9,593 nucleotides of DNA, from NCBI GenBank assembly GCA_000002435.2, contig AACB03000030.1, one strand, 5' to 3'. A program made the translations under genes and the position numbers. Source of the stretch: Giardia intestinalis. Taxonomy: Eukaryota. The stretch's first letter is position 1; every line of letters starts with the position of its first letter. Positions 1-9,593 of this stretch are shown here, one piece after another. The notes beneath the pieces are model-generated. The model was not told the DNA's origin. It saw only the letters and a program-made list of their open reading frames with translations, and did not search any database.

Positions 1-586
1 TCCTTCATAAATAAGGCCTCGTCAGCGCCCTCGCATCCTTCAAGCGTCTTCGCCACGCAGGTCGATGTCCCGTCGAGGGCCGTCCTGGGGGTCTTATTGG
101 TCCCGCAGTTAGTGCACTTCGGCTTCCCCGTGGCCTTGTCGAAGGAGCATGCCGTGCACTCTGCGTGTATCGTACTACATGCCTTGCATGTTCCCGACTC
201 CGGGTCAGCATAAGTGTTTCCATCGCATCCAGTATCTTGTACACATTGATTACTCTTCAGGTACTTCCCCTCTGGGCACGATGTACAATGATTCTGACCA
301 CTTCCATCGCAGGTCAGACAGGACTGATCACACTTCTCACATGTCTGAGCGTTCTTATAGTATCCATCTCTGCAGGTATCACACGTGGCCGCTCCTGGAC
401 TACCACTTGGTGCCGTACATGTGGCGCAGTTAGCCACCCCTGTATATCCATCTGCCCCATTGACATCATGACAGAGGATGCACTCGCTACCCTTCTCTGG
501 TGTTGCAGCCGGGTTCTGAACAGGCCGTTATCTGCCTTACAAGCAGTGCACAGTCCTCCCTCAGCCTTTGTGCATATCTCACTCCA
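1..586 (-). pseudogene. VSP-like cassette 0 (5' part only; the rest runs off the left edge of the window). Cys-rich, start-less, frameshifted.
   Basis: 1-517 is identical to 1913-2429, the N-terminal third of cassette 1 (..CTNCGTNKTPRTALDGTSTCV..GECILCHD..). The frame opens at Trp codon 584-586, directly after TAG (587-589 on minus). There is no ATG. A 1-bp deletion at about 518 (ttcagaac versus ttcaagaac) shifts the frame relative to cassette 1. Confidence 0.7.
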
Positions 587-637
587 CTATCATACTATCA
601 CCCTCTATCACACATTGTACAGCATTCACTACCTAAG
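587..637 (-). terminator. 51-bp inter-cassette spacer and 3'UTR. Poly(A) signal AGTGAAT (plus-strand attcact, 624-630). Three TGATAG motifs give stops in all three frames.
   Basis: Coding-strand sequence is TGA-CTTAGGT-AGTGAAT-GCTGTACAATGTGTGATAGAGGGTGATAGTATGATAG-TGG. AGTRAAY is the Giardia polyadenylation consensus. The same element recurs at every junction. Confidence 0.7.
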
Positions 638-2499
638 TCACGCCTTCCCCTGCACACGAACCACCAACACAAGAAGCCCACGAGGCCCCCCACGACAGCG
701 ATGACAGCCACGGAGATCCCTGCTATGGCACCAGTACTGAGGCCGCTCTTGTTGCCCCCGCTGGGCTTGGTGGACACGCACGCCTCACCCTCCAGCCTGT
801 AGTCGTCCCCGCACTGGCCGCACTTGTTCTCCTCGCTGCACCTGACGCACCCGTCGATATTGCAGGCGATGCACTTCGTTCCGTCTGTGTTCGGCCTCTG
901 GTCTTTACTGGTACAGGCCTCGCACTTATCGCCTGCTCCACAGTGCGAGCATCCGTCAACGGTACATGCGAAGCACCCGCTCCCAGCCAGGTTGGGCTTG
1001 TTGTTGTTGGTACACGCTGTACACACAGCAGCAGTCATACCAGTCTCAGATGGAGCTGCTGGGGCCGTACATGCCGAACAGCCATCTACCCCCACATATG
1101 CCTTAGAGGTATCACCAGTGCCTACTAGTGTGCCAAGGGAGTTGCTACATGCCAATACAGACTGATTCTGATTGGTTGCCCCAGGGACTATGAAGTACCT
1201 ATTGTTGGCATTAACAGCGGTACAGACACCGTTGGCTGCTGTCTTGCACATATGTTGTCCAGGTACTGTATCAACCTTGTAACAACCTCCCATATACAAG
1301 AAGTAGTTGTTAGTGCATTGTGTACATACACCTTGATCACATTGATTATTTGCTTTAGCACTATTACACTTCCCATCTATAGGATACGTATTAGCTTCTC
1401 CACAGTATGAGCAATAATGATGCTCTACACCCTTATCATCAATCACTATTGCATCGCAGGCACCAGAAGTTCCTCCACAGGCAGTATCATCTTCACAGAT
1501 CTTGGTGCATGTGACAGAGCCAGTACTGCCCTCCTTGCGATAGTTAGGCTTACAGTCAGTGCACTTGAAAGCACCGTTGTTAGAGCAGACACTGCAGCCT
1601 TCGCGACCCTTATCGTCTACGCTATCGCATGGGACGCACTTCTTCCCCTGTTGATCTGTAGTAGTTACTAAGAAGTATCCAGTCTTGCAGGTTTCACACT
1701 TATTTGGATCACCAGCAACAGAGCATGTGGCACAGTTATCACCACACTTGTCTGTACATGTACTAGTACCACTATCAAAGAAGTATCCATCGAGACAGGC
1801 TGAGCAGGTTGGATTGTCACTTCCTGTTTTCGTACATGTCTTGCAGTTGGCCTTTCCTTCGTTACCAAGAGTTGAATCTGTCACATCACTACAAAGAGCA
1901 CACGTTTTGTCCTCCTTCATAAATAAGGCCTCGTCAGCGCCCTCGCATCCTTCAAGCGTCTTCGCCACGCAGGTCGATGTCCCGTCGAGGGCCGTCCTGG
2001 GGGTCTTATTGGTCCCGCAGTTAGTGCACTTCGGCTTCCCCGTGGCCTTGTCGAAGGAGCATGCCGTGCACTCTGCGTGTATCGTACTACATGCCTTGCA
2101 TGTTCCCGACTCCGGGTCAGCATAAGTGTTTCCATCGCATCCAGTATCTTGTACACATTGATTACTCTTCAGGTACTTCCCCTCTGGGCACGATGTACAA
2201 TGATTCTGACCACTTCCATCGCAGGTCAGACAGGACTGATCACACTTCTCACATGTCTGAGCGTTCTTATAGTATCCATCTCTGCAGGTATCACACGTGG
2301 CCGCTCCTGGACTACCACTTGGTGCCGTACATGTGGCGCAGTTAGCCACCCCTGTATATCCATCTGCCCCATTGACATCATGACAGAGGATGCACTCGCT
2401 ACCCTTCTCTGGTGTTGCAGCCGGGTTCTTGAACAGGCCGTTATCTGCCTTACAAGCAGTGCACAGTCCTCCCTCAGCCTTTGTGCATATCTCACTCCA
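598..2499 (-). pseudogene. VSP-like cassette 1. Full-length Cys-rich ectodomain and TM, but no start codon or signal peptide. The CRGKA tail is destroyed by a 1-bp deletion.
   Basis: ORF 598..2349 in the track begins at a GTG. The frame is actually open up to Trp codon 2497-2499, preceded by TAG 2500-2502. Translation gives WSEICTKAEGGLCTACKADNGLFKNPAATPEKGSECILCHD.., many CXXC motifs, FLYMGGCY, CTKICEDDTACGGTSGACDA, then [34 protein letters not shown] followed by [15 protein letters not shown] instead of KA*. The expected stop is at 638-640. There is a cccc versus ccccc difference at about 647-651 relative to 2560-2564. No in-frame ATG with a hydrophobic leader. Confidence 0.75.
1082..2124. 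repeat. 1042-bp identity block shared with cassette 4 at 6571-7613. One mismatch at its 5' edge, otherwise identical.
   Basis: Track ORFs 1188..1376, 1417..1671 and 1668..1868 have identical translations to 6677..6865, 6906..7160 and 7157..7357, at a constant offset of 5489. The flanks at 2125 onward versus 7614 onward, and below 1082 versus below 6571, are clearly divergent. Confidence 0.85.
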
Positions 2500-7979: not shown

Positions 7980-8040
7980 CTATCACACTATCACCCACTA
8001 TCACCTTCTATCACCCATTGTACAGCATTCACTACCCAAG
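7980..8040 (-). terminator. 61-bp variant spacer and 3'UTR. It has one extra 10-bp TATCACCNNC repeat. Poly(A) signal AGTGAAT (plus attcact, 8027-8033).
   Basis: The sequence ctatcacactatcacccactatcaccttctatcacccattgtacagcattcactacccaag holds three tatcaccNNc decamers, against two in the 51-bp version. Confidence 0.65.
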
Positions 8041-9593
8041 TCACGCCTTCCCCCTGCACACGAACCACCAGCAGAGAAGCCCACGAGGCCCCCCACGACA
8101 GCGATGACAGCCACGGAGATCCCCGCGATGGCCCCGTGGAGAGCCCGCTCCTGTTGGTGCCAGAGGACACACACATGCCATCCCTCGGGACATAGCCTCC
8201 TCGCACTCCCCGCAGACGCCCTCTGCGCTGCACCGCATGCACCTCTCTATGTCACAGACAATGCACTGGGTGCCGTCCAGGCTGGGTCTCTGGTCTTTAT
8301 TGGTACATGCCTCACACTTGTTGTCTGCGCTGCAGTGAGAGCAGCCCTGGGCCGGACACACATAGCAGGTGCTTCCAGCCATGTTGGGCTTCTTATGTCC
8401 TCAGCACACACCTCGCACATCCCGTCGATGGCGCAGCTCTTGCACCCGCCGACCGCACACAGGGTGCACCCGCTGCCATCCTTGTTGGGCTTCTTCGTCT
8501 TGTCGCACGCACTACAGACCGCCGCGGCCATCGCATTGGCGGCTGGCGCCTGCGGGGCCGCGCACGCCGTGCAGTCTAGCACGCCGACGTACGCCTTGTC
8601 GCCCGCGGTCGCTCCCACAGGGTTGCCACAGGCAAGCACGGACTGCTGAGCAGCAGAGTCCCCAGGAATCTTGAAGTAGCGCCCGACCGGTGTGGTGCAG
8701 AACCACTTGGAGCCGCAGAGCACATGAGGTTGCCAGGAGCCTTCGACACATCATAGCAACCACCCATATAGAGGAAGTAGTTGTTGGTGCACCGCGTACA
8801 TACGCCATCGGCGCAGGTATTACCTGCAAGTGCATTGGTGCACTTCCCATTAATAGGGCCATAGCCGGCGCCAACACACTTTGAACAGTAAGAGAGCATG
8901 CTGCCGTCGTTGCCGACCACGATGGGCGTCGCAGGCCCCTGCTGTCCCTCCACATGCAGTCTCATCTTCACAGGTCTTTGTACATGTGAGGTCGCTAGGT
9001 TCTCCGCTGGGTCTGTAGTTGGGCTTACATTCAGTGCATTTGAGGGACCCCACGCCGCCTGTGCACTCGGCACAGCCTGGAATCCCACTTGTCTCGTCAT
9101 CACAGAGAACGCATGTCTTAGGCGGGCCATCCTTAAGGAGTACCCCGGCATGCATCTTGTACATGTGTTGATTTGACCCGCTGTTCCGCACTCTGCGCAG
9201 TTTCCTGTGCAGGCCTCGCAGGCGTTTCCGTTGACTTTTACCCGTCGACACAAGCCTCGCAGGTGCCTTTTGCGGTGCACAGCTTGCAGTTCTGGACTCC
9301 GCCCTTACCATTGTCGCCGCACTGCACGCACTTCGAGGCGTCGTAGAAGTGCGTCTTGCCCACTTTGCACTCGGCCTCATCAACACAGGTCGTTGTCCCA
9401 TCCAGCTCGTCTCTGACCGTCTTACTACCGCAGTCGGTGCACTTCGGCTTCCCGTGGCGTCGTCGTATGCACACGCGGTGCATCCTTGTATCTCACTGCA
9501 GGCCTTACAGGTCCAGGTCTTCTTGTCCGCATAGTTACCATTGTCACATCCACCAGCATCTACACAAGTGTTACCATCCTTCAGGTACTTCCC
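8041..9593 (-). pseudogene. VSP-like cassette 5. Partial (5' end lies beyond the right edge). GC-rich divergent subfamily, heavily frameshifted.
   Basis: Overlapping minus-strand track ORFs 8041..8382, 8247..8723, 8576..9280, 8850..9401 and 9238..9483 all carry VSP motifs (AYVGV, KKPNKDGSGC, NNYFLYMGGCY, CTKTCEDETACGGTAGACDA, GKPKCTDCGSKT). The TM region is thrown out of frame by two 1-bp deletions (cagcagagaagccc versus cagcagaggaagccc; gatggccccgtgg versus gatggcccccgtgg). The last 45 nt before the stop, and the 3'UTR, are identical to the other cassettes. Confidence 0.75.

Follow-up and report, generated by a model that had tools for sequence, protein, structure and literature searches.

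Single-base frameshifts in a six-unit Giardia intestinalis psi-VSP linear array are probably for the most part long-read consensus errors

Background

'Linear arrays' of variant-specific surface protein (VSP) units have been described in Giardia, in which the members are separated by spacers of ~60 bp and the downstream members have neither an initiator (Inr) nor an ATG; the proposal was that they serve as cassettes for recombination or are genes that have been discarded (Adam et al. 2010, PMC2996952). The WB genome was assembled from PacBio RS II reads using HGAP and Quiver (Xu et al. 2020, PMC7000408), and the same paper reported homopolymer frameshift errors as well as psi-VSP arrays without start codons. 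Correction of an indel in that assembly required no fewer than 10 mapped Illumina reads of 75 bp and support of 50 % or more, and 33 small contigs of <33 kb, made from leftover reads, were enriched in gene families (PMC7000408). Coding sequence spread over three frames has also been described in pVSPs, and was attributed to evolutionary indels (Rodriguez-Walker et al. 2022, 10.1101/2022.03.07.483299). The stretch of DNA analysed here (the window, 9,593 nt) is a psi-VSP linear array of Giardia intestinalis (assemblage A, WB-like), of a kind already published, and its six units carry 15 single-base lesions. In our assessment most of these frameshifts are probably long-read consensus errors and not decay mutations.

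The window resembles the published psi-VSP linear arrays (PMC2996952, PMC7000408, 10.1101/2022.03.07.483299) in its head-to-tail arrangement, spacers of ~60 bp, downstream members lacking ATG, Inr and signal peptide, conserved CRGKA tail and 3' signal, mosaic related members, and frame-split coding sequence; the published arrays are often located on small contigs. The difference is at the unit start, which is slightly shorter in the window (TAG and then WSEICT), whereas other WB arrays translate the spacer as 'MLYSDSDS..LFFMGGCY..'; nothing essential differs. The lesions in turn resemble the PacBio/Quiver homopolymer errors of the WB reference (PMC7000408), being single-base, deletion-biased and run-associated, truncating otherwise intact genes, and fixable only where short reads map. 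They differ from those errors in that several lie in runs of only 2 or in no run, and in that the density in the right-hand unit is far above that of a well-covered Quiver consensus and would need low coverage or repeat-copy confusion. Neither the array type nor the error type is new to the literature, and as it stands the finding is for the most part a matter of data quality that adds nothing new on Giardia biology.

Silent-cassette archives of surface antigens are known from other organisms, and include the VSG pseudogene arrays of T. brucei, the vls cassettes of Borrelia, pilS of Neisseria and the msp2 pseudogenes of Anaplasma. Like the present array, these consist of tandem partial surface-antigen copies that are promoter-less and start-less, and that are open or nearly so. 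Unlike these archives, VSP switching in Giardia is regarded as epigenetic or post-transcriptional, and we know of no demonstration of donor-to-expression-site conversion in this organism.

Single-base lesions

The minus strand of the window contains six Giardia VSP units (U1 to U6) arranged head-to-tail, and no unique sequence flanks them within the window. Lesions were located by three-frame tracing together with pairwise and multiple alignment of the six units, and in U1 also by a three-frame print; positions refer to the plus strand, and base changes to the coding (minus) strand unless otherwise stated. The total of 15 consists of 14 net losses of one base and one gain. Thirteen lesions can be placed and are all exactly 1 nt, while the other two are net -1 changes in diverged patches. 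With 15 single-base edits every unit reads in an uninterrupted VSP frame from WSEICT to CRGKA and stop, and after this repair neither a stop codon nor any other out-of-frame indel was found in ~9.2 kb of coding sequence. The frame switches are not due to chance, because VSP homology continues in the new frame at every one of them.

U1 (8041..9593) has its 5' end truncated by the window edge and comprises the VSP body, a transmembrane (TM) segment and CRGKA. It holds nine of the lesions, a local density of 1 per ~170 bp. From its 3' end these are CC to C in the TM region (8076), G5 to G4 (8132-8135), GGG to GG (8196-8197), AA to A (8396; GACAATAAG to GACATAAG, with the parent inferred from 'EDNKK' in the WB protein P0005), TTT to TT (8701-8702; a Phe codon in the parent, inferred from P0005 and a second WB protein, P0121), the sole insertion, CC to CCC (8924-8926), TT to T (9139; parent 'GYFLK' from P0121), a non-run deletion in a Tyr codon, TA[Y]AAA to TAAAA (9238^9239), and G4 to G3 (9451-9453).

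The remaining lesions are spread over the other five units, all of them likewise on the minus strand. U2 (6232..8040) consists of a 61-nt spacer (7980-8040) and a coding part (6232-7979) that begins with WSVICT and matches Pfam PF03302; its single lesion (6535^6536) is a net -1 change in a diverged patch, just beyond a 1-kb block that is 100 % identical to U5. U3 (4418..6231; spacer 6181-6231, 51 nt; coding 4418-6180, beginning with WSEICT) has one 1-nt deletion at 5704^5705, CAC[T]AAC to CACAAC, which is a non-run deletion relative to the sister copies. U4 (2551..4417; spacer 4367-4417; coding 2551-4366) has two lesions. The first, at 4315^4316 (AAG[G/A]CAG), lies where U4 switches from sequence of the U3/U5/U6 type to that of the U2 type, in a column that is G in U3, U5 and U6 and A in U2. 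The second, at 2983^2984, is in a diverged patch (AYVGV[x]NCSQC) where only the net loss of one base is certain and the base itself is unplaceable. U5 (638..2550; spacer 2500-2550; coding 638-2499) is open over 620 codons, and its one lesion lies inside the CRGKA codons (647-650; G5 to G4 on the coding strand, C5 to C4 on the plus strand), turning CRGKA and stop into CRGRRD.... U6 (1..637; spacer 587-637; coding 1-586) is truncated at its 3' end by the window edge and has lost one A of an AA pair at 517 (TT to T on the plus strand), within a block that is 100 % identical to U5 and U3. At both 5704^5705 and 4315^4316 the missing base falls where sister copies differ or could differ synonymously (an ACN Thr codon and a G/A column, respectively). 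The loss of a base at such positions would fit a consensus caller that had been given mixed reads. Within the window, k-mers that span the junctions at 4315^4316 and 6535^6536 occur in U4 and U2 alone, respectively.

The sequence-only reading that first drew attention to this region had listed eight frameshifts. All eight exist, and alignment and three-frame tracing gave a net loss of 1 nt at each. Its coordinates were mostly right, except that the site placed at about 2965 is really 2983^2984, ~20 nt away, and the one placed at about 8128 is the run at 8132-8135. It had also mentioned more lesions in its cassette 5, which is U1, where seven further ones were located. Its remark that some lesions, such as those at 647-650 and 8132-8135, occur in homopolymers and could be consensus errors holds. 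The change from aagacagat to aagcagat, which it had taken as a non-homopolymer case, is a GG to G contraction when compared with three of the four sister copies.

Comparison with independent WB sequences

The lesions in U1 could be compared with two proteins of the WB reference that are encoded by adjacent genes on chromosome 5 of GCA_000002435.2, P0121 lying on the 4,018,654-bp WB chromosome. Residues 1-318 of repaired U1 match P0121 (KAE8304682.1, 'High cysteine protein') over its residues 58-375 without any true amino-acid difference, and residues 206-~495 correspond to residues 435-725 of P0005 (KAE8304683.1, a complete VSP) with mismatches only at placeholder codons. Over these ~495 codons U1 therefore has 8 indels and zero amino-acid substitutions relative to the two proteins. 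If the indels were real and arose as often as substitutions, one would expect ~6 nonsynonymous changes, and the probability of seeing none would be about 0.003; at the usual indel:substitution ratio of roughly 1:10 it would be <1e-13, both values being estimates from typical mutation spectra. The Sanger-era WB proteins P0130 and P0131 (XP_001703836.1) also read through the sites at 9453, 9238 and 9139.

U1 is chimeric, its N-terminal two thirds being of the P0121 sequence and its C-terminal part of the P0005 sequence, and its last 25 codons and 3' flank are of a type common to the other units of the array. Identity of locus with either protein was considered and rejected: P0121, which ends with ...AAQQKRG and a stop, departs from the window near 8650, and P0005 is different in the N-terminal half and over the last 25 residues. 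P0121 itself resembles a truncated psi-VSP unit, having an internal Met start, no TM segment and the AAQQKRG end. The old models P0131 and P0133 (XP_001703925.1) have out-of-frame tails, which look like single-base errors at contig ends of the Sanger assembly.

Across the window, 11 of the 15 sites are read through by Sanger-era or polished-reference WB proteins with flanks 96-100 % identical, although these proteins may be paralogous. The site at 5705 is read through by VSP S7 (P0038, AAN52102.1), P0132, P0133 and the reference VSP P0008, with flanks 98-100 % identical. P0001 (XP_001705784.1) is 99 % identical to U5, from which it has three small differences, and has an intact CRGKA at the 650 site. 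In the Sanger-era annotation, eight units of the array type have an open frame all the way from their start to CRGKA; they begin with 'MLYSDSDS...', which is derived from the spacer, or with 'MGGCY...', and have no signal peptide. In the window, by contrast, all five units that have a 3' end are frameshifted. The sequence-only reading had held that lesions outside homopolymers were more likely real, and these comparisons do not support that view. Reference and Sanger-era proteins that are otherwise 100 % identical read through 9238^9239, a lesion outside any run, just as they do through its eight neighbours in U1, and at 5705, also a non-run site, the read-through comes from three Sanger-derived WB sequences and one reference VSP.

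Four sites had no such counterpart. Listings of cluster members, covering WB and DH proteins, contained none identical around 517, 2984, 4316 or 6536, and a search for homologues of repaired U4 turned up none that exceeded 67 % overall or 88 % at the two U4 lesion sites. A metagenome scan for the unit-start junction gave no match, and exact-protein lookup traced P0027 solely to an Illumina contig of another isolate, where it is a stand-alone VSP.

Lesion spectrum and sequence constraint

Where the parent sequence is known, 10 of 11 lesions change the length of a run of at least 2 (38 % expected, P=5e-4), and 3 of these 11 lie in runs of at least 4 (4 % expected, P=0.009). The lesions are unevenly distributed: the first 650 nt hold 2 and the last 1.5 kb hold 9, against 4 over the intervening 7.4 kb, and 11 of the 15 are no farther than 1.6 kb from one or other end of the window (binomial P=0.002; Kolmogorov-Smirnov P=0.007); the test of end clustering was post hoc, and the right-hand cluster coincides with a single unit, U1. 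This clustering counts against decay because the window ends have no biological meaning. Contig ends, for their part, are places of low long-read depth.

Neutral decay is expected to bring substitutions, including nonsense codons, together with indels of mixed length and the loss of constrained residues. Nonsense codons, mixed indel sizes, lost conserved residues and a ratio of nonsynonymous to synonymous change (dN/dS) near 1 were each sought in the repaired units, and none was seen. Conserved cysteines, defined as columns with Cys in at least 90 % of 39 complete VSPs, are all kept (53/53 in U1 and 68/68 in each of U2 to U5), while the complete VSPs themselves miss 0.18 on average. The dN/dS between units is 0.18-0.40, with dS partly saturated. 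The lesion spectrum is unlike that of neutral pseudogene decay.

VSP identity and pseudogene status

Pfam PF03302 (Giardia variant-specific surface protein) matches four of the units with E-values of 1e-16 to 1e-42, each repaired unit has 25-28 CXXC motifs, and the nearest database relatives are VSPs of G. lamblia/intestinalis WB ATCC 50803. In the complete VSPs P0004 and P0005 the motif of the WSEICT type is found ~100 residues in, past the signal peptide and the first Cys module. An ATG start and an N-terminal signal peptide were looked for in the units and are not present, nor is there any upstream region. The units are accordingly psi-VSPs and not VSP genes. Start-less units have already been described for these arrays (PMC7000408, PMC2996952).

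The array is a head-to-tail series in which each copy covers the 3' part (~600 codons) of a VSP gene and ends with the TM segment and CRGKA, a stop and an AGTGAAT polyadenylation-type signal. A spacer of 51-61 nt joins each copy to the next at about codon 100 of a full VSP, and the downstream copies are for that reason without ATG, signal peptide and promoter. The earlier statement that the units are start-less whatever the state of the frameshifts is correct. Its corollary, that real frameshifts would confirm pseudogene status, adds little, since the spectrum is unlike decay and it is the absent start and signal peptide, not the frameshifts, that make the units pseudogenes.

Origin of the lesions

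For the nine lesions of U1, at least, we infer a technical origin, and regard consensus error as very probable. It is also likely for 647-650 and 5705 and, though with less certainty, for 517, the other lesion near the left end. For 2984, 4316 and 6536 the chances are about equal for and against. Short-read polishing would fail where an identical paralogue elsewhere in the genome captures the short reads, leaving the erroneous copy uncorrected. Such a failure would fit U1, with its paralogues P0121 and P0005, and the lesions at 5705 (P0008 and others) and 517 (U5 and U3). It would also fit 647-650, 8076 and 8132-8135, at which sister units have identical 3' ends.

Several points weigh against consensus error. 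Over their common 1-kb block U2 and U5 are 100 % identical, with no indel, so any error rate must be very uneven along the window. Three or four lesions lie outside runs of at least 2. The comparisons were made with proteins of paralogous or possibly allelic copies only, in which synonymous differences are invisible, and U1 appears to be a third copy that is not provably the same locus as P0121 or P0005. Homopolymer enrichment and a deletion bias are features of real slippage mutations as well. The frame-split pVSPs of the reference were, in addition, read by their authors as the product of evolutionary indels (10.1101/2022.03.07.483299).

The alternative that survives best, although we think it improbable, is a mixed origin, in which the end-clustered lesions are artefacts and the mid-window lesions at 4316, 6536 and perhaps 2984 are real, each being a 1-nt scar where a tract of gene conversion or unequal crossover between array units ended. 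The mosaic nature of the array is clear, 4316 lies at the U4 switch between sequence types and on a copy-variable column, 6536 lies just beyond the 1-kb block identical to U5, and recombination among array members was proposed earlier (PMC2996952). A consensus caller mixing reads of two near-identical copies would, however, leave the same signature in the same places. There are just two or three such sites, which gives no statistical power, and the junctions have no match in the independent sequences compared. A further version, in which 4316, 6536 and perhaps 2984 are genuine scars of ongoing segmental recombination, and the preserved frames and cysteines and the low dN/dS reflect selection of the units as recombination donors, seems to us improbable. 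If it were true, the array would be a working sequence archive for VSP diversification in Giardia.

Genuine decay would make the units of the array dead copies and the 15 indels real germ-line mutations accrued after loss of the start, and we consider it slightly less probable than a mixed origin. Without ATG and signal peptide there would be no selection for an open frame, part of the lesions lie outside homopolymers, U1 could be the oldest unit, and decay would agree with the published interpretation of frame-split pVSPs in the WB reference (10.1101/2022.03.07.483299). Set against this, the units have no nonsense codon, no indel longer than 1 nt and no loss of a conserved cysteine, and the dN/dS is 0.18-0.40. 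U1 would have had to gain 8 indels relative to P0121 and P0005 without an amino-acid change over ~495 codons, Sanger-era units of the same type are open, and the lesions crowd towards window ends that are biologically meaningless.

Allelic heterogeneity, in which not all of the four genome copies of this tetraploid, or not all array repeats, would have the lesions and the consensus took a minority or mixed state, is very unlikely. Allelic sequence variation is higher around VSP regions (PMC7000408), and P0001 and U5 have three small differences that point to variation between copies or assemblies. Against this, the overall heterozygosity of WB is reported as 0.03 % or less, and nine heterozygous frameshifts without an amino-acid substitution in one 1.5-kb unit are as implausible as fixed decay.

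If the frameshifts are consensus errors, the literature that counts and describes 'degenerate' psi-VSPs from long-read assemblies of Giardia would overstate decay, and the silent arrays would amount to coding cassettes that are essentially intact. This would bear on the old suggestion that they may serve as a recombination reservoir. Until accurate reads have been checked the locus is unsuited as evidence of pseudogene degeneration, and 'degenerate' psi-VSPs may be largely intact.

Array anatomy

The window contains five spacers, each of 51 nt except the 61-nt spacer ahead of U2, all with AGTGAAT and ending in an in-frame TAG. AGTGAAT fits the sequence AGTRAAY, which we take to be the Giardia polyadenylation consensus. 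WSEICT (WSVICT in U2) follows immediately after the spacer TAG, and the ATGs within the spacers reach a stop in a few codons. At the C-terminus, five units have the TM segment, (V/I)CRGKA and a stop, displaced by 1-nt lesions in U5 and U1. The spacers are made of 10-nt repeats of the GTGATAG type, with one repeat more in the U2 spacer (TRF match 7977-8017). Old gene models of other WB arrays translate this spacer as 'MLYSDSDSAMWCGGDSDS...', followed by 'LFFMGGCY...PGSEICT', a stretch that is missing from the junction in this window; the present array family thus appears to have a shorter unit boundary than other WB arrays.

About 1 kb of U2 (about 6634-7605) is 100 % identical to U5 (about 1145-2116) without any indel. 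U6 and the 5' part of U5 (1-637 and 1914-2550) differ by one spacer substitution and the 1-nt deletion at 517 and are otherwise identical. These near-identical stretches could reflect very recent duplication, gene conversion, or repeat copies merged by the assembler.

On the plus strand, the open reading frames of 204-330 aa match no Pfam family and shadow the VSP frames in antisense. The GC content of U1 is 59.6 %, compared with 50-55 % in the other units. In the TM region of U5 (660-680), FLCWWF is encoded as TTCTTGTGTTGG... and in the other units as TTCCTCTGCTGG..., with three synonymous differences and no amino-acid change. These synonymous-only differences may be taken as a local sign of coding constraint in the start-less U5.

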